From an uncultured Eubacteriales bacterium (GTDB lineage: Bacteria; Bacillota; Sulfobacillia; DYIH01; JBBIPI01), in contig CAYXQP010000004.1 of NCBI GenBank assembly GCA_964467515.1, positions 1 to 39,300 of the forward strand: DNA of 39,300 nucleotides, in the 5' to 3' direction. The translations under genes and the position numbers were made by a program. Shown here in pieces: positions 11,597 to 31,687 of the stretch (position 1 is its first letter; the number at the start of each line of letters is the position of its first letter). The notes below the pieces were generated by a model. That model was not told where the DNA came from. It searched no databases and was given only the letters and a program-made list of their open reading frames with translations.

Positions 11597-12649
11597 TTGT
11601 CGTGGGATCAGGTGACCGCGCTGGCCATGGCCGCCGTCCTGGCGGCGGTCCTAACCCCGCTCGTCCGCCGGGTGGCGCTGGCGGTGGGCGCCCTGGACAG
11701 GCCCGGGCACCGGAGCGTGCACACGCGGCCCGTGCCGTTCCTGGGCGGCGTCGCCGTGTACCTGGCCTTCGCCATCGCCACGGCGGTCACCCTGGGGCTG
11801 GACCGGCCCGAGGTGCGGGGTATCCTCCTGGGCGGCTGTTTCCTCCTCGCCTTCGGCATCCTCGACGATTTCCGGCCCCTGCGGCCCCGCGCCAAGGTGG
11901 CGGGCCAGGTGCTGGCGGCTCTCATCGGCTGGGCGTGGGGCGTGAGGATAGACTTCGTCACCAACCCCTTCGGGGGCGGTCTGTTGCACCTTGGGTACCT
12001 GGCGCTGCCCGTGACGGTGCTCTGGGTGGTGGCCGTTGTCAACGTCATCAACCTGATAGACGGGCTGGACGGGCTGGCGGCGGGCATCGTGGCCATCGCG
12101 AGCGCCGTGCTCCTGGTATCCGCCTCCCAGATGGGCATGCCCCTGCCCGCCCTCACCCTGGCCACTCTCCTGGCGGCCTCCCTGGCCGGTGGCGCCCTCG
12201 GCTTCCTCCCCTACAACTTCCACCCCGCCCGCGTCTTCCTGGGGGACGGCGGCTCCATGTTCCTGGGCTACGCCCTGGCTTCCATATCCATGGAGGGATC
12301 GCTCAAGAGCCCGGCCGTGCTGGCCCTGGCGGTGCCCGTGCTGGCCATCGGCCTGCCCGTCTTCGACACGGCGCTGGCCGTCTGGCGCCGGTGGCGGCGG
12401 GGGGTTCCCATCGGCACCCCCGACCGGGAGCACTTCCATCACCGCCTTCTGCAGGCCGGCCTGAGCCAGCGGGAGGCCGTCCTCATCATGTACCTGGCCA
12501 GCGCCTGGCTGGGGGTGGGCGTGCTAGCCATCATCCACGCCGACCTGCGGGTGGCTTTCGTCATCCTGGCCCTGGTGGGCGCCAGTCTCTATTTTGCGGG
12601 CAGAAAGGTGGGCGTCTCCGCCGCTGCACGGGAGCAGAGTTCCCACTGA
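11597..12649 (+). CDS. tagO: UDP-GlcNAc:undecaprenyl-phosphate GlcNAc-1-phosphate transferase (TagO/WecA, MraY family)
   Basis: GILDD, NVINLIDGLDGLA, NFHPARVFLGDGGS, PDREHFHHRL; polytopic membrane protein. Confidence 0.9.
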   Translation: MSWDQVTALAMAAVLAAVLTPLVRRVALAVGALDRPGHRSVHTRPVPFLGGVAVYLAFAIATAVTLGLDRPEVRGILLGGCFLLAFGILDDFRPLRPRAKVAGQVLAALIGWAWGVRIDFVTNPFGGGLLHLGYLALPVTVLWVVAVVNVINLIDGLDGLAAGIVAIASAVLLVSASQMGMPLPALTLATLLAASLAGGALGFLPYNFHPARVFLGDGGSMFLGYALASISMEGSLKSPAVLALAVPVLAIGLPVFDTALAVWRRWRRGVPIGTPDREHFHHRLLQAGLSQREAVLIMYLASAWLGVGVLAIIHADLRVAFVILALVGASLYFAGRKVGVSAAAREQSSH

Positions 12650-18305: not shown

Positions 18306-20734
<2,429 letters not shown>

Positions 20735-20743
20735 GAGGCGGCC

Positions 20744-21184
20744 ATGGCCAGGACCTTCGAGATCCAGGTCTTCACGCCGGAGCGGACGGTGGTGCGGGCC
20801 AAGGCCGAGTACGTGAGCCTGCCCACGGCGGACGGGCTCTACGGCGTGCTGGGCGACCACGCTCCCATGGTGGGGCTCCTGCGCCCCGGGGTCGTCCACT
20901 TCCGGGGCGGCGGAGAGACGCAGGTGGTGGCCGTCATGGGGGGTTTCTTCCAGGTGCTGCCCGATCGCACGGTGGTGCTGGCGGACGAGGCCGAGCTGCC
21001 TGAGGAGGTGGACGTGACGGAGGCCCTGGCGGAGCGCGACCGCGCCCTGGCCGCCCTGGAGGCGGGCGGGGAGCAGGAGGAGGTGGCGCGGGCCAAGGAG
21101 GCCCTGGAGCGGGCCCTGGCCCGCCTCCCGGCCGACGGCCGCGGGGTGGCGGGTCAGAGGACGTCCTGGGCGCGCCAGCAGTGA
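20744..21184 (+). CDS. atpC: ATP synthase F1 subunit epsilon
   Basis: Beta-sandwich with GVLGDHAPM and VMGGF, plus a C-terminal helical hairpin; last atp gene. Confidence 0.95.
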   Translation: MARTFEIQVFTPERTVVRAKAEYVSLPTADGLYGVLGDHAPMVGLLRPGVVHFRGGGETQVVAVMGGFFQVLPDRTVVLADEAELPEEVDVTEALAERDRALAALEAGGEQEEVARAKEALERALARLPADGRGVAGQRTSWARQQ

Positions 21185-21360
21185 TCGAAGGATCCCTGGT
21201 GGGCACCGTCGCAGAATGGCATGTTCTCGGAGCGGCCGCACCGACAGAGGGCCACCTGCTCCCCGCCGGCATGTGCCCGACCCGTCCCGTCCAGGAGCGT
21301 GACCGGCCCTTGGACCAGGTACGGGCCGCGGTCCAGCACGCGGATGGTCACCTCGGCCAT
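21154..21360 (-). CDS. CDGSH iron-sulfur domain protein (68 aa)
   Basis: GPYLV and ALCRCGRSENMPFCDGAH match the C-x-C-x2-S-x3-P-x-C-D-G-(S/A)-H [2Fe-2S] motif. Confidence 0.93.
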   Translation of the reverse strand: MAEVTIRVLDRGPYLVQGPVTLLDGTGRAHAGGEQVALCRCGRSENMPFCDGAHQGSFDHCWRAQDVL

Positions 21361-21555
21361 GGTGTCACCCCCTTTCCCTGCCGATGTGAGGATACAGGGA
21401 GCAGTTTCTTAGGGCAAGTAATTACCGTAAGGAAACTTTGTATACCATTACTCCATCCTCCGACGGCGGGCTCCCCGGGAACGGCGGTGGTATCCTGCCG
21501 AGTCCGGGCGGTGCCGGAGGGCCGGCCGATGGCCGTCCGCCCCCGGAGGAGAAGG

Positions 21556-21588
21556 GGAAGCGCCCCGGAATGACACCGGGGCGCTTCC
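21556..21588 (-). terminator. Hairpin/likely terminator downstream of ctaD-like gene
   Basis: Perfect 13-bp stem GGAAGCGCCCCGG-N7-CCGGGGCGCTTCC, followed on the minus strand by a pyrimidine run (weak U tract). Confidence 0.6.
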
Positions 21589-21653
21589 GCGGAAGGCATC
21601 CCGTCCGTCCCTGACGCCCGGCAGCCTAAGCGGCCGCGGTCGCGGGACGGGGA

Positions 21654-23555
21654 TCAGGCGTGTTGCGCCGCCGCCTTGGCGGTGCCCTCCTCCTCGGTTT
21701 CCAGATAGTAGCCGTCGGCCTTCTCCAGGGCCCAGCCGAGGACGCCCAGGAGGATGATCACCAGCCCGGCTACCAGCCCCGGCACGCTGGGAGAGATGGC
21801 GCCGAAGCCGCCCACCAGGAGCCCCAGCCCCACCACGGCCGGCATGAAGGAGGGGGAGGGCATGTGGACGGCGTTGCCGTGGCGGTGGTGGTCCTCCTCG
21901 GCCGGCAGGATGTGACCGTTGCCGTGGGTCTTCTCGTACCAGAGGGCTTCCTTGCCGCGCACGAGGGGCAACCGGGCGAAGTTGTAGGCCGGCACCGGGC
22001 TGGGCGTGGCCCACTCCAGGGAGCGGCCCAATCCCCAGGGATCGGCTCCCGCGCGGCGACCGCTGGCCAGGCTCTCGATCATGGCTATCACCAGGGTTAG
22101 GACTCCGAGGGCCTGCAGGTAGGCGCCGATGGTCTCGATGGAGTTGAGGGGTCCCCAGCCGGAGTCGGGGATGTAGGTATAGACGCGCCGGGGCTGGCCC
22201 ATGAGGCCGGCTATGAGCTGCGGGAAGAAGGTCATGTTGAAGCCGATGAAAAGGATCCAGAAGCTGGGACGGCCGATGGCCTCGTTGAGCATCTTGCCCG
22301 TCATCTTGGGCCACCAGTAGGTTATGCCCGCCAGGAGCCCGAAGACGATGGCGCCGATGGCCACGTAGTGGAAGTGGCCCACGATGTACATGTTGTCCTG
22401 GAACTGCCGGTCCACGCTGGAGCTGGCGTTGACGAGGCCCGTCAGGCCGCCGATGTAGAACAGGAAGAAGAAGGCGCTCACGTAGTGCATGGGCAGCGTG
22501 AACCGGACCTTGCCTCCCCAGAGGGTGCCCAGCCAGATGAAGACGAAGATGGCGGCCGGTACGGAGACCGCCTTGGTCGAGATCGCGAAGGCCGTGTTGA
22601 CGGTGCTGCCGGAGCCCACCGTGTACATGTGGTGCAGCCAGACGATCCAGCTGAGGATGCCGATGGTGGAGATGGCCGCTACCATGGACCGGTAGCCGTA
22701 GAGGGGCTTGCCGGCGAAGGTGGGCAGCACCTCGGACACGCAGGCCAGGGGCGGCAGCAGCAGGATGTAGACCTCCGGGTGGCCGAAGAGCCAGAACATG
22801 TGCTGCCAGAGCAGCACGTCGCCTCCCCCGCCCGCCGCGAAGAAGCCGGTGCCCAGGACGCGGTCGAAGTAGAGGAGGATGAGGGCGAGCATGAAGGGGA
22901 TGCCGGCCGTCAGGCCCAGGATGGCCGTCATGAAAGTGAACCAGACGAGGGGCGGCATGTCCATGAGCCCCATGCCGGGCGCCCGCAGCTTGAGGATGGT
23001 CACGATGAAGTTGAGGCTGGTGAGCATGGTGCTGAGCATGCCCAGCTCGACGCCCACCAGGTAGGTGTTCATCCCGACGCCGGGGCTGAAGGGCTTGGTG
23101 CTGAGGGGCACGTAGGCGAACCAACCGGCGTCCGCCGCGCCTCCCAGGAACCAGCCGGCATTGATGATGACGCCGCCGGCCAGGAGACACCAGTAGCTCA
23201 TCATGTTCATGCGCGGGAAGGCCACATCCCGCGCGCCGATCATGACGGGCATGACGAAGTTGAGGATGCCCCAGATGATGGGCGTGGCCGCGAAGAAGAT
23301 CATGATGGTACCGTGCTGGGTGAGCACCTGGTTGTAGGTCTCGCCCACCACCAGGTTGTTGAGCGGGCGGGCCAGTTGGGTGCGGATGAGCAGGGCCTCG
23401 ACGCCTCCCACCACCAGGAACAGGAGGCCCGTGACGAAGTACATGATGCCGATGCGTTTGTGGTCCACGGTGTTGATCCACCCGAGGAAGCCGCTGTCAG
23501 CCCGCCGTTTCAGCACTGGTAGCGCGCCTTCCGCTCTGTGTGCCGCTACCGCCAT
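21654..23555 (-). CDS. ctaD: Heme-copper oxidase subunit I, A1-type, Bacillus CtaD-like, orphan and atypical
   Basis: TVDHKRIG, QHG, DVAFPRMN, WLFGHPEVY, HHM, HFHY, PRR, and a C-terminal HMPSPS two-helix extension. ATG at 23555 has a good RBS (ORF extends to 23681). Confidence 0.95.
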   Translation of the reverse strand: MAVAAHRAEGALPVLKRRADSGFLGWINTVDHKRIGIMYFVTGLLFLVVGGVEALLIRTQLARPLNNLVVGETYNQVLTQHGTIMIFFAATPIIWGILNFVMPVMIGARDVAFPRMNMMSYWCLLAGGVIINAGWFLGGAADAGWFAYVPLSTKPFSPGVGMNTYLVGVELGMLSTMLTSLNFIVTILKLRAPGMGLMDMPPLVWFTFMTAILGLTAGIPFMLALILLYFDRVLGTGFFAAGGGGDVLLWQHMFWLFGHPEVYILLLPPLACVSEVLPTFAGKPLYGYRSMVAAISTIGILSWIVWLHHMYTVGSGSTVNTAFAISTKAVSVPAAIFVFIWLGTLWGGKVRFTLPMHYVSAFFFLFYIGGLTGLVNASSSVDRQFQDNMYIVGHFHYVAIGAIVFGLLAGITYWWPKMTGKMLNEAIGRPSFWILFIGFNMTFFPQLIAGLMGQPRRVYTYIPDSGWGPLNSIETIGAYLQALGVLTLVIAMIESLASGRRAGADPWGLGRSLEWATPSPVPAYNFARLPLVRGKEALWYEKTHGNGHILPAEEDHHRHGNAVHMPSPSFMPAVVGLGLLVGGFGAISPSVPGLVAGLVIILLGVLGWALEKADGYYLETEEEGTAKAAAQHA

Positions 23556-23741
23556 CGCCTCTTCCCTCCCCACTGAGATTCGAGACTCAACGGAAGCCCT
23601 GGCCTCGTGGCCGGGCCCTGCTCGCTCCCCCCGCCTGCCATCCCCCCTTTGCGGTCCGTCGCCGGAAACAGGCTCAGCCAACCCCCGGAGTGAGGTTGGC
23701 AGAGCTGGCCGGTAACCCGGATCACGGCCCAGTTGCCCAAG

Positions 23742-23770
23742 ATTTTACGCAAAGATGTTTTTTATAGAAA
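23742..23770 (-). promoter_or_regulatory. Putative sigmaA promoter for ctaD-like gene
   Basis: Minus strand TTTCTA-N17-TAAAAT in the only AT-rich patch of the intergenic region. Confidence 0.55.
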
Positions 23771-23936
23771 CAAGCGTCCATGGCTGCACGGGTGAGATAG
23801 CCGAAATAACTAGTGATAGTGGCGGTAAAAATGGGCTATGGTTGGATGACATTGGCCATAAATCGGCTTAGAGGGGCGATTCTCGCCGGCGGTGCCGAGG
23901 GGGGCGGCCGGGGAAACATAAGGCCGGTGACGGCGG

Positions 23937-25193
23937 GTGGCGGCCATCCTGGTGCGGGGGGGCAGACCTCTCGAGGGGGAGGTCACGGTGCAGACGGCCA
24001 AGAACGCCATGCTGCCCGTCCTGGCCGCCACCATCCTCGCGGGCGGGGAGTGCGTCCTCCGGCGCGTGCCGCCCCTCTACGACGTCCACGTAATGTGCCA
24101 GCTCCTTCTGCGCCTGGGCGTCCAGGTCCGCCTCCGCGAACCGGGCACCCTGCACGTCACCCCCGCCGAGACCCTCTTTTACGAGACGCCCCATGAGCTG
24201 GTGCGCCGGATGCGCGCTTCCGTGCTGGTGATGGGGCCCCTTTTGGCCAGGGTCGGCCGCGCCAGGGTGTCCCTCCCCGGAGGCTGCGCCATCGGCAACC
24301 GACCCGTGGACCTGCACGTGCGCGGCCTGGAGGCCATGGGCGCCAGGTTCTCCGTCCGCTACGGCTTCATAGAGGCCGAGGCTGACGCGCTCAAGGGCGC
24401 CAGGGTCTACCTGGACTATCCCAGCGTGACCGCCACCGAGAACGTCATGATGGCGGCCACCCTGGCCGAGGGCACCACCATCATCGAGAACGCTGCCGGC
24501 GAGCCGGAGGTGGTGGACTTGGCGGACTTCCTGCGGGGGATGGGAGCCCGCATCGCCGGCGCGGGGAGCCGGGTCATCGAGGTCGAAGGAGTAGCGGCGC
24601 TGGGGGGGACGGAGCACACCTGCATTCCCGACCGCATCGAGGCCGGCACCTACCTCCTGGCCGGAGCCGTCTCGGGCGGCCACGTGGTCGTCAAGGGGGC
24701 GGTCCCCCATCACCTGACCCCCCTCCTGGCCAAGCTGGAGGAGGCAGGGGCCGCCGTAACGGTGGGACCCGGCACCGTCAGCGTGCGCGGACCCTCGCGC
24801 CCGCGGGCCACCGACGTCAAGACCCTTCCTTACCCGGGGTTCCCGAGCGACCTGCAGGCACCCATGATGGCCTTCCTGGCGGTGGCGGAAGGTATCAGCA
24901 TCTTCACGGAGACCGTTTTCGACAACGGTTTCCTCCATGTGGAGGAACTCAAGCGGATGGGCGCCGACATACGGGTGGAGGGTGCCACGGCCGTCGTGCG
25001 GGGCGTGGAGGCATTGACGGGGGCGCCCGTCCGGGCGACGGACCTGCGGGCGGGGGCGGCCCTGGTCCTGGCGGGACTGCGGGCCCAGGGCGAGACGCGG
25101 GTCGGCGGCCTCGCCCACCTGGACCGTGGTTATGTCAACCTGGTGGGCAAGATGGCCTCCCTGGGCGCCGACATCAGGCGGGTGGAAGACTGA
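23937..25193 (+). CDS. murA: UDP-N-acetylglucosamine 1-carboxyvinyltransferase (divergent)
   Basis: [19 protein letters not shown] (catalytic Cys loop), [31 protein letters not shown]. Confidence 0.95.
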
Positions 25194-29680: not shown

Positions 29681-31546
29681 TCACTTGCCAGGGGCCGTGA
29701 GGGCGCCGTCGGCGTCGGGGGCCGTCGGCACCTCCGCCACCCGGACGCGGTTTCGGCCCGCGGCCTTGGCCGCGTAAAGGGCGTCGTCGGCGGCCCTGAT
29801 GAGGGATTGCCGGTTGGAGGCGGCGTCGGGATAGGTGGCCACCCCGGCGCTGAGGGTGATCCCCGTCAGCTTGTGCCCGCCGGGGACATCAATGGCGGCC
29901 GACTCCAACAACTGCCTGATTCTCTCCAGGACCGCCAGGGCGCCGTCGGCATCCGTCTCCGGGAAGATGATGGCTATCTCCTCGCCGCCGTAACGGGCGG
30001 CCAAGTCACTGCTCCGGAGGCTCTCTCTCAGGATGTGGGCCAGCTGTCGCAGCACCTCGTCGCCCACCTGGTGGCCGAAGGTGTCGTTTACCTGCTTGAA
30101 GCGGTCCAGATCCAGCATGGCCAGGGCCAGGCGCGAGCCCGACCGGGAGGCCCGGTTGATCTCCTGGTCCAGCCTCTCCTGGAAGAAGCCGTGGTTGTAC
30201 AGGCCCGTCAGCGGGTCGCGGGTGGCCAGGTCCTGCAGCACCAGGTTGAGGCCGCGGAGGTCGGCGAGGAGGAGGTCCCGCTCCCGCGTGTAGTGGTCCA
30301 GCCGCTTGGCGACGATGGCGGCCACCGTCATCATGGCCGCCGTGGTGAGCCCGTGGCTCGTCACGTGCCAGCCGATGACGGCAGGGCTGAAGCTGGCTCC
30401 CCAGCCGCTGTCGCGGACGAGCTCCAGGGCCGAGAGGACCAGCGTGATGCCGCCCGTGAGGAAAACGCCCTGCAGGCCGAGGACGATGCCGGCGAGCGGT
30501 ATCGGTATCAGGGCCATGGAGAGATAGAGGAGGGCCTTCAACTCGTCCGCCGTTATCATGAGGAAGCTGAGGGATCCGCTGAGAAAGGCGAAGTGAACCA
30601 GGGCCCGCTGGCGGGGATGCCCGGGGCCGACCCGGGGCCAGAGGACGTTGAAGACCGTCAGGGCCCCCATGGTGGCGGCAAGGGAGCGCCACCCGGGGCT
30701 CCGGGCCTCGCCGGTGAAGACGGGGATCAGGGTCAGGACGCAAACGAAGAACCAGGTTATGAACTCGAGATAGGAGTAGTCTATGGGAGCCCCGCCCGGC
30801 TCGGTCGCTTCCAGGTGGCGGGCGGGGGCGGGCTCGCGCCTGAGGCGCAGGATCAGGGGTGCCAGGGCGAGGCTCGCGTAGACGGCCACGCCCGTCCAGA
30901 CCCGCACGAGGGCGAAGTTGGCCGCCAGGGCCGTCAGCACGAGGAAACAGGCAGCGTCGGCCGCCGGTCGCAGGGTCGCGGGCCCGCGGCCGGCCAGGAG
31001 GACGGCCTGCAGGCCGCCCGCCAGGATGGCACCGGCGGCGAAGGGGAGCGGCCCCACGAGGTGGGCGACGGGGTACGCAGCGGGTGGGAAGCGGTGGGGT
31101 AGGAAAAGCAGGAGGAGGCCCAACACCAGGAGAAAGACGGTCAGGACGGCCCGGTGGAGGTCGAGGGGAGGCCGCCAGCCCCTGCTCTCGGCGAAGGCGG
31201 TGTACAGCAGGCCCAGGGCGAGGAGGCCGTAGATCAGCACGCCCGAGGGAACGGAGGTGGAGGCGAAGTTGGCCGCCAGGAGGACAAAGGGGAGAGAGGC
31301 CAGGAGGCGTCCGGGCGCCGAGAAGGGCGGCCGGACCGGCCCGCCCGTCTGGGCCAGCAGGTAGGCTCCCGTCGCCACGGTCAGCGGGGCGAGGAGGTGG
31401 AAGTGCTGGCGGACCAAGGGAGCGTAGAGGGTGGGCGAGAGGGTGCCGCCGGCGATGAAGAAGGCGATGCCCAGGGCGACCTGAGCCAGCCCCGCCGCGA
31501 AGATGAACGGCAAGAGGTCGGCGCCTTTCTGCCTCGCAGTGTCCAC
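29681..31546 (-). CDS. Integral-membrane diguanylate cyclase (GGDEF domain)
   Basis: DPLTGLYN, DLDRFKQVNDTFGHQVGDEVL, RSSD I-site, RYGGEEI; long polytopic N-terminus. GTG start at 31546 follows a GAGGAGG RBS (ORF extends to 31612). Confidence 0.93.
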   Translation of the reverse strand: MDTARQKGADLLPFIFAAGLAQVALGIAFFIAGGTLSPTLYAPLVRQHFHLLAPLTVATGAYLLAQTGGPVRPPFSAPGRLLASLPFVLLAANFASTSVPSGVLIYGLLALGLLYTAFAESRGWRPPLDLHRAVLTVFLLVLGLLLLFLPHRFPPAAYPVAHLVGPLPFAAGAILAGGLQAVLLAGRGPATLRPAADAACFLVLTALAANFALVRVWTGVAVYASLALAPLILRLRREPAPARHLEATEPGGAPIDYSYLEFITWFFVCVLTLIPVFTGEARSPGWRSLAATMGALTVFNVLWPRVGPGHPRQRALVHFAFLSGSLSFLMITADELKALLYLSMALIPIPLAGIVLGLQGVFLTGGITLVLSALELVRDSGWGASFSPAVIGWHVTSHGLTTAAMMTVAAIVAKRLDHYTRERDLLLADLRGLNLVLQDLATRDPLTGLYNHGFFQERLDQEINRASRSGSRLALAMLDLDRFKQVNDTFGHQVGDEVLRQLAHILRESLRSSDLAARYGGEEIAIIFPETDADGALAVLERIRQLLESAAIDVPGGHKLTGITLSAGVATYPDAASNRQSLIRAADDALYAAKAAGRNRVRVAEVPTAPDADGALTAPGK

Positions 31547-31687
31547 GCTGTCCTCCTCGACGGTTGTCCCAGCTCCTGGATCTTGCGACTGATCGAAGCC
31601 GCGGCGCGCCAACCCAGGGCCTTACCTTATTAATCCGTTTCTCCGACGGTTGCCGGAACGTCATGGCGCCCAGGGGGCACCAGACTT

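Follow-up and report, generated by a model that had tools for sequence, protein, structure and literature searches.

A subunit I of the A1-type heme-copper oxidases without the K-channel lysine and with an ionisable residue higher on helix VIII

The ctaD gene and its altered helix VIII

The DNA analysed here is a stretch of 39,300 nucleotides from an uncultured Eubacteriales bacterium (GenBank assembly GCA_964467515.1, contig CAYXQP010000004.1, positions 1 to 39,300), which we refer to as the window. With a GC content of 70%, it includes the genes rho, prfA, murA and spoIID, the atp operon and genes for the flagellar rod; the closest matches to its AtpD are those of named Thermaerobacter (80–81%) and of Symbiobacteriaceae and Limnochordales metagenome-assembled genomes (MAGs). 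Between atpC and murA lies a lone minus-strand gene, ctaD, which encodes a subunit I of the heme-copper oxidases in which the lysine of the K-channel, K362, is replaced by phenylalanine and a lysine is present nine residues upstream, at position 353. K362 is treated as essential in A-type oxidases, and its exact role is debated, either as a proton shuttle or as a mobile charge that gates the reduction of heme a3–CuB. The features of the gene that matter here are given below; residue equivalences follow the numbering of Rhodobacter sphaeroides unless Paracoccus denitrificans is named.

21654–23555, minus strand: ctaD-like gene, A1-type heme-copper oxidase subunit I, 633 amino acids (aa) (Pfam COX1, QoxB alignment, AlphaFold)
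22767–22784, minus strand: GHPEVY motif with the CuB ligand His259, the D-channel Glu261 and the cross-link Tyr263 (alignment)
22521–22607, minus strand: transmembrane (TM) helix VIII, residues 317–345, with the putatively remodelled K-channel face T327-K328-A-V-S331-V-P333-A334-A335-I-F337 (DSSP on the model, H317–329 and H331–345; alignments)
22572–22574, minus strand: Lys328 codon (AAG), M353 position, the new ionisable residue (alignment)
22563–22565, minus strand: Ser331 codon (TCC), A356 position (alignment)
22554–22556, minus strand: Ala334 codon, T359 position (alignment)
22545–22547, minus strand: Phe337 codon (TTC), K362 position (alignment)
22419–22430, minus strand: helix IX polar patch N376-A-S378-S379 (L401 region), clade-specific (clade contrast)
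22398–22400, minus strand: Gln386, Mg-site H411 position, an ordinary variant (DRQFQDN) (alignment)

The minus-strand translation reads ...AFAISTKAVSVPAAIFVFIWLGTLWGG at helix VIII, and HMMER alignment to Bacillus subtilis QoxB (PDB 6KOB) set the window sequence AFAISTKAVSVPAAIFVFIW opposite QoxB FFSITTMAISIPTGVKIFNW. This alignment assigned K362 to Phe337, T359 to Ala334 and M353 to Lys328, the same codons as a preliminary description that had been made from the letters of the sequence, and so gave Phe and Ala instead of the canonical K-channel Lys and Thr. In addition, the G360 equivalent is Ala335 and the N365 equivalent is apolar. The preliminary description thus had the loss of Lys and Thr and the new Lys right, but it overlooked the replacement of A356 by serine (Ser331) and the polar residues gained in helices VII and IX, which are described below.

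The frame of ctaD is open as far as a TTG at position 23681, which had first been taken as its start. The ATG at 23555 is the likely start, because it is preceded by GGAGG and gives a protein in line with the lengths of the homologues (621–633 aa). The product matched Pfam PF00115 COX1 with an E-value of 4.7e-143 (477.6 bits; cutoff, 34.8) and has the 12-TM core fold of subunit I of the heme-copper oxidase superfamily. The best PDB match in HMMER was QoxB of the B. subtilis aa3-600 oxidase (6KOB, E = 7.6e-163), in an alignment that spans the whole protein and takes in two additional C-terminal helices. An AlphaFold model built from 90 input sequences (pLDDT 93.9, pTM 0.93) contains 14 TM helices, with no extra TM helices at the N-terminus, and gave TM-scores of 0.89–0.91 to Escherichia coli bo3 and Thermus caa3 and of 0.77 to the structure of the R. 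sphaeroides K362M mutant (PDB 3OM3). Neither NCBIfam equivalog applies: the score was 629.5 for TIGR02891 CtaD_CoxA (cutoff, 670.75) and 633.4 for TIGR02882 QoxB (cutoff, 1015.5).

Outside helix VIII the catalytic residues are in place. The protein retains H102, H284, H333, H334, H419, H421, Y288, E286, D132, N121, N139, N207, T352, S299 and the R481/R482 pair, so that the earlier statement that all six His ligands, the cross-link Tyr, E286, D132, N139, N121 and both arginines are kept was borne out. The set expected of a heme-copper O2 reductase, six His ligands (two for heme a, one for heme a3 and three for CuB) and the cross-link Tyr of helix VI, corresponds to H81, H396, H394, H259, H308, H309 and Y263 of the window protein. 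Sousa (2011) defined the D-channel of A1 enzymes as D124, N113, N131, N199 and E278, and the A-type K-channel as K354, T351, S291 and Y280 (P. denitrificans). The former is complete as D110, N99, N117, N182 and E261, which are invariant in the clade of close relatives introduced below. The latter reads F337, A334, S274 and Y263, with two of the four residues kept, and with Phe at position 354 (P. denitrificans) and without the cbb3-type KC residues in helix VII the protein falls among the family-A enzymes with a "modified K-channel". It is not a B-family (ba3) enzyme, since the D-channel and E286 are present and only the Ser331 position is B-like, nor a nitric oxide reductase (NOR), since it still has the Tyr and the full set of three CuB His. 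To judge from these residues, the gene product is very probably a functional O2-reducing subunit I of the A1 type. By its position in the sequence, Lys328 would lie next to T352 near CuB.

Conservation, selection and coupling at helix VIII

The homologue set consisted of the 120 best matches among 5.8 billion proteins. The 20 closest clusters (49–94% identity) all lack K362, and all other matches in the set carry the canonical TM..A.PTG.K.FNW. We compared these 20 clusters and the window's own sequence (21 clade sequences) with 43 non-redundant canonical relatives. Position 353 (window 328) is Lys in 17 and Glu in 4 of the clade sequences, as opposed to Met, Ile, Ser or Leu in the canonical relatives, and position 356 (window 331) is Ser in all 21, against Ala in 42/43. 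At position 359, 11 clade members have Thr, 6 have Ala and 4 have Met, the change to Ala occurring in the window's sub-branch and that to Met in the Glu sub-branch; the canonical relatives have Thr throughout (43/43). At position 362 the clade has L, F, I, Y, V or M, where the canonical relatives invariably have Lys (43/43). The Mg-site substitution H411Q, which the preliminary description had counted as part of the phenomenon, was discarded as a component of it, Gln being found in 20 of the 43 K-bearing relatives.

Further clade-specific changes were found at V375/N376 in helix IX, with N376 in 18/21 clade sequences and H or L in the canonical relatives. The S378 position is polar in 100% of the clade and 9% of the canonical relatives, and the S379 position in 76% and 5%, respectively. 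Helix VII has gained the polar residues S290 and S302; the KC-equivalent positions of this helix are G287, M291, A294 and S302 in our own alignment. E300 is kept in 21/21 and S299 in 17/21 clade members. Lys328 co-varies with helix IX positions 375 and 376, and its co-variation with N376 suggests that the Lys328 side chain is placed between helices VIII and IX.

These patterns bear on the proposal, also made in the preliminary description, that the enzyme uses the D-channel only, i.e., that no protons pass through the K-pathway and that D110...E261 supplies those for the chemistry as well as those that are pumped. The positions of K362, T359 and N365 are all apolar in the window protein and the D-channel is fully conserved, as such an enzyme would require. 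However, the basal clade members keep T359, the clade as a whole keeps S299/E300 and the entrance Glu of subunit II (see below), and what happened round helix VIII is not a plain loss of polarity, since Ser331, which is invariant, was gained along with polar residues of helices VII and IX. Moreover, K362M enzymes lose nearly all O2 turnover, and reduction of the binuclear centre needs K-pathway protons. We therefore consider a D-channel-only oxidase unlikely.

The gene is under purifying selection. The ratio of nonsynonymous to synonymous substitution rates (dN/dS) was 0.076 at a dS of 0.41 between the window gene and its 94%-identical relative P0001, far from the value near 1 that relaxed selection would give, and 0.25 against P0002 (79% identical). 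Only close pairs were used, because the values of 0.4–0.7 obtained over longer distances are unreliable, dS being compressed by a GC content at third codon positions (GC3) above 0.9. The GC3 of ctaD is 0.92, similar to that of the adjoining genes. With substitutions common to 21 clusters spanning 49–94% identity and a dN/dS of about 0.08, sequencing error, which the preliminary description had already thought improbable, and decay of ctaD are excluded. A decaying duplicate, or pseudogene in the making, might have been suspected from an orphan gene on the opposite strand inside an otherwise conserved atp–murA–spoIID block. The intact 633-aa frame, the low dN/dS, the GC3 shared with the neighbours and the retention of all catalytic residues make this scarcely conceivable.

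The clade was monophyletic in 95% of neighbour-joining (NJ) bootstraps, and its sister group was purely K-bearing in 85%, NJ being a crude tree method. The clade shares on average 52% identity with its canonical bacterial relatives and 40% with the archaeal Glu-type proteins described below. Sequence comparison thus places the clade, which comprises at least 21 protein clusters from Thermaerobacter/Symbiobacterium-like, heat-loving Bacillota, inside the canonical K-bearing caa3 enzymes. Because the clade is monophyletic, its sister group carries K362 and identity to the archaeal proteins is only 40%, the K362-less pattern seems to have arisen independently in it. Horizontal transfer of the motif from archaea was rejected for the same reasons (about 40% identity to the archaeal TE-type against about 52% to the canonical bacterial proteins, and the K-bearing sister group in 85% of NJ bootstraps). 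A search of genome contigs with the window protein brought up canonical relatives of no more than 50% identity (L004–L083) and no clade members, and is uninformative on taxonomic distribution.

For a wider view, a profile search was made of 1.84 billion 50%-identity representatives and the 150 best A-family proteins were taken. Representatives at this level are unable to count the clade itself, whose members appear merged with canonical representatives. Position 362 is Lys in 90, Gln in 22 and another residue in 38 (mostly apolar, with a few His, one Asp and one gap), so that about 40% of 150 diverse A-family representatives lack K362. The literature also lists modified K-channels, including those of Thermaerobacter and of the Acidithiobacillus rus-operon aa3, and the rarity first attributed to K-channel loss does not hold. 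What did not recur is Lys at 353, which was seen in 0/150 representatives and nowhere outside the clade.

Coupling was evaluated in the 136 representatives with an intact active site, with phylogeny ignored. An apolar residue at 362 goes together with Ser356 (18/24, against 1/89 of the K362-bearing proteins; Fisher 7e-15) and with an ionisable residue at 353, 360 or 361 (15/24 against 0/89; Fisher 7e-13). Archaeal fusions of subunits I and III alternate between T-E-x-x-S-x-P-F-G and T-[ILM]-x-x-S-x-P-F-D. On a helical wheel (our own calculation), 353, 356 and 360 fall on a common face, near 100, 40 and 80 degrees; T359 is near 340 degrees and K362 near 280 degrees.

An explanation that needs no new proton-carrying residue is a neutral, B-family-like K-pathway of water and hydroxyls (Ser331, T359 where present, S299 and Y263), with Lys328 or Glu328 serving structure and packing with Asn376. 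Ser331 would fall at the S309 position of ba3, in the same S-x-P-T context, B-type enzymes have Thr/Ser/Tyr instead of Lys/Thr/Ser (Sousa 2011), the co-variation of Lys328 with helix IX 375/376 agrees with a packing role, and in 9 of the 24 K362-less representatives positions 353, 360 and 361 all lack an ionisable residue. However, the other 15 have one and the 89 K362-bearing proteins have none, and residue 328 is Lys or Glu in 21/21 clade members; a buried charge under strong purifying selection is unlikely to be merely structural. This explanation is, in our judgement, rather unlikely.

Three other groups of A-family proteins came to light in the survey. The archaeal I+III fusions P0334–P0446 (non-ammonia-oxidizing (non-AOA) Thaumarchaeota, Thermoprotei and Marsarchaeota) have Glu353 or Asp360 and always Ser356 and Phe359; papers call them "D- and K-channel possessing A1", and the sequences disagree for the Lys. 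Most of the 22 Gln representatives are COX1–COX3 fusions of about 840 aa with E286 kept and the pattern S-M-x-x-A-x-P-S/T-G-x-Q-V-F-A-W (e.g., P0134, P0137, P0139, P0143–P0148 and Ectopseudomonas mendocina WP_017360924.1); a published table scores "subtype a COX13 fused" as K-channel positive. Finally, P0132, P0160, P0207, P0212 and P0250 form a small A-family-like clade with Trp at the E286 position, no K362 (Ala, Val or Leu) and Ser or Thr at both 356 and 359, in which both classical channels appear altered.

An orphan copy and its relatives in caa3 operons

Two further features flank ctaD in the window.

21154–21360, minus strand: CDGSH iron-sulfur domain gene, 68 aa, directly downstream of ctaD (Pfam zf-CDGSH, E = 2.3e-18)
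23556–23936, no strand assigned: divergent ctaD–murA intergenic region, probable promoter region, with an AT-rich stretch at about 23760–23830 (sequence reading)

No genes for subunits II, III or IV were found within the 39.3-kb window. The relatives of the window protein have a different setting: genes for a caa3 complex (COX2 with CuA and a fused cytochrome c, subunits III and IV) adjoin the clade members P0011, P0012, P0013, P0008, P0124, P0004 and P0007. The complete operons run COX2 (cytochrome c), COX1, COX3, COX4, mostly followed by CtaA/CtaB or CtaG/SCO1/CopC. Among the operon members, P0124 and P0004 (76–77% identity) share the T359-less "PAA" helix of the window protein; the others are P0007, P0008, P0011 of the cultured Caldinitratiruptor microaerophilus (operon in AP025628.1), P0013 and the Glu-type P0012. 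The entrance Glu at the start of TM2 of COX2 is kept in 7/7 associated COX2 proteins (LEIGWT, WELGWT, YELIAW), which also have the motifs for CuA and heme c. Because these relatives stand in complete caa3 operons, the variant helix VIII is part of the catalytic subunit in caa3 oxidases of ordinary appearance, and the gene in the window is an additional paralogue. This orphan paralogue presumably assembles with CtaC, CtaE and CtaF encoded elsewhere, as an alternative isoform. P0002 (79% identity) is likewise an orphan; a truncated subunit II upstream of it was considered and rejected, the 513 upstream bases having stops in all frames. One MAG, GCA_037442985.1, has two complete K362-less caa3 operons (L087 and L089), P0008 with T359 and P0004 without it, one of which adjoins tig–clpP–clpX, as does the P0124 operon in another assembly.

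The protein could also have a changed role, in which it would reduce NO or H2O2, sense O2 or regulate without being catalytic; a peroxide- or NO-handling variant and a regulatory subunit were among the options of the preliminary description. A changed role would suit an orphan copy that has no subunit II or III gene nearby, adjoins a gene for a [2Fe-2S] CDGSH protein and scores under the NCBIfam CtaD cutoff. On the other hand, the active site has the make-up of an O2 reductase, with three CuB His, the Tyr cross-link motif and E286, and shows neither the loss of the cross-link Tyr nor the altered CuB/FeB ligand set (Glu, Asp) that the literature, including Sousa (2011) and Murali (2024), gives as NOR signatures; near-identical helix VIII variants occur in standard caa3 operons that include heme A synthase and copper chaperone genes, and the CDGSH linkage extends only to the window and one 94%-identical relative. 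A peroxide- or NO-handling enzyme or a regulatory subunit is thus very unlikely. The linkage itself was seen in the 94%-identical locus L003 (CDGSH gene at 12188–12394) and was absent beside P0002.

The 3′ end of the CDGSH gene overlaps the end of the convergent atpC by 31 bases. Together, ctaD and the CDGSH gene form a minus-strand insert (20744–25193 region) in a block of a kind typical of Bacillota, atp operon–murA–spoIID–spoIIID–mbl, whose genes otherwise all run in one direction. A scan of the region upstream of ctaD for the sigma-70 consensus yielded no promoter site. The only other long minus-strand gene of the window encodes a GGDEF diguanylate cyclase of 643 aa (29681–31612), which is also present in L003. 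Very long spurious open reading frames, such as those at 19067–21241 and 21448–23481 (both minus strand), occur opposite or in other frames of real genes; at 70% GC such frames are no surprise, and GC3 tells the real ones apart.

A candidate proton path and comparison with known oxidases

Taking the conserved substitutions together, we lean modestly towards a K-pathway that has been remodelled, rather than deleted, in the caa3 oxidase of the clade. In this scheme the mid-membrane K362 would have given way to a hydrophobic residue, while the ionisable Lys328 (Glu in one sub-branch) and Ser331 would have been gained further up helix VIII, by about 2.5 and 1.7 turns, joined by the additional polar residues of helix VII (S290 and S302) and helix IX (N376, S378 and S379). 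Protons for the reduction of heme a3–CuB would enter near the subunit II Glu and S299, and water and Ser331, plus T359 where it is kept, would relay them to Lys328, roughly level with the active site (T352/CuB). Lys328 would take over the acid/base and charge-compensating job of K362, and the untouched D-channel (D110...E261) would serve pumping and the oxidative phase. That Lys and Glu alternate at 328 among clade members speaks for a protonatable residue and against a fixed charge. We infer the proton route, the role of Lys328 and the assembly of the orphan copy from the conserved residues and the operons of the relatives. Of the three options in the preliminary description, an oxidase with a new proton path is the best fit, and the neutral ba3-like and D-channel-only explanations would account less well for the conserved polar gains.

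Several points weigh against a remodelled K-pathway. By helical periodicity, position 353 is turned by about 100 degrees relative to T352 and by about 180 degrees relative to K362, so that Lys328 may face helix IX and not the lumen of the K-channel. In the window's sub-branch T359 is lost as well, which leaves a long apolar stretch (334–345) between the N-side and Ser331. Conservation of the subunit II entrance Glu could be unrelated to proton uptake, and the coupling statistics among the representatives are not corrected for phylogeny. No subunit II or III gene lies in the window, so that this copy may or may not assemble into an oxidase, and the clade is known from its sequences.

More tentatively, and with a little less than even confidence, we suggest that an ionisable residue at 353 or 360 combined with Ser356 forms a portable alternative K-pathway module that replaced K362 several times independently, with Glu or Asp in archaea and uniquely with Lys here. 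If this were true, the clade would amount to a natural experiment in which the lysine was moved up the helix, and which could be transplanted to probe whether K362 acts as a relay or in charge compensation. The change is a compact set of three to five substitutions, testable in the B. subtilis or R. sphaeroides enzymes. The clade represents a natural, selectively maintained A1 enzyme with an ionisable group about 13 Å higher on the same helix, where either Lys or Glu is tolerated. It follows that not all members of the ctaA-G/caa3 group of Bacillota are "K-channel positive", and automated A1/A2/B classifiers and NCBIfam equivalog cutoffs cope poorly with such proteins. Current understanding is not overturned, because K362-less A-family enzymes were known before; they are already frequent and catalogued, and the trait of the window protein is less exceptional than first thought.

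Among known systems, the nearest are the canonical caa3 A1 subunits I of Bacillota and Chloroflexi (B. subtilis CtaD type; nearest structures, 6KOB QoxB and 2YEV Thermus thermophilus caa3), with 46–50% identity. The 14-TM layout with two C-terminal helices, GHPEVY, the D-channel and all ligands are shared, as is the operon type in the relatives. Where the canonical proteins have TM..A.PTG.K.FNW (43/43), however, the window protein has TK..S.PAA.F.FIW, and N376, S378 and S379 in helix IX.

Degli Esposti et al. (2021; PMC8239418) tabulated "modified", "hybrid" and "KC" K-channels in family A and argued for repeated independent losses, the examples including Thermaerobacter marianensis WP_013496006, the Acidithiobacillus rus-operon aa3, Alicyclobacillus, Marsarchaeota, Aeropyrum and Ferroplasma. 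The window protein resembles the catalogued modified enzymes in being an A-family protein with HPEVY and with K354 (P. denitrificans) replaced by F, I, L, M, V or A. The catalogued bacterial groups have two extra N-terminal TM helices and have lost S291 and the COX2 Glu (W, I or V), whereas the window clade has no extra N-terminal TM helices and keeps both S299 and the COX2 Glu. The same catalogue scores the ctaA-G/caa3 group, to which the window clade belongs, as "K-channel: yes" and leaves positions 353 and 356 unscored. A literature search for the 353/356 signature or for the clade's oxidase returned nothing specific beyond this general catalogue of K-channel variants, and the Lys353/Ser356 solution inside the Bacillota caa3 group appears to be undescribed.

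The archaeal A1 COX1–COX3 fusions (Marsarchaeota, Thermoplasmata, marine Euryarchaeota and non-AOA Thaumarchaeota) also lack K362 and have Ser356 and an ionisable residue at 353 or 360. They differ in that this residue is Glu or Asp and never Lys and that T359 is Phe. Because identity is about 40% and the clades are separate, the resemblance looks convergent. The K-analogue pathway of the B-family ba3 oxidases (T. thermophilus S309/T312/T315), which is also mentioned by Murali (2024), has Ser at what would be the 356 equivalent, in the S-x-P-T context, and no Lys at the 362 equivalent. We infer the match of Ser331 (A356) to S309 from the shared S-x-P-T spacing rather than from a tool alignment. 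The ba3 enzymes are without the D-channel and E286, whereas the window protein has both, plus a Lys unseen in ba3.

The R. sphaeroides K362M mutant (3OM3) has, like the window protein, an apolar residue at 362 in an otherwise A1-type enzyme. This mutant is nearly inactive with O2. It is without compensating changes, whereas the natural clade carries co-evolved substitutions under purifying selection.

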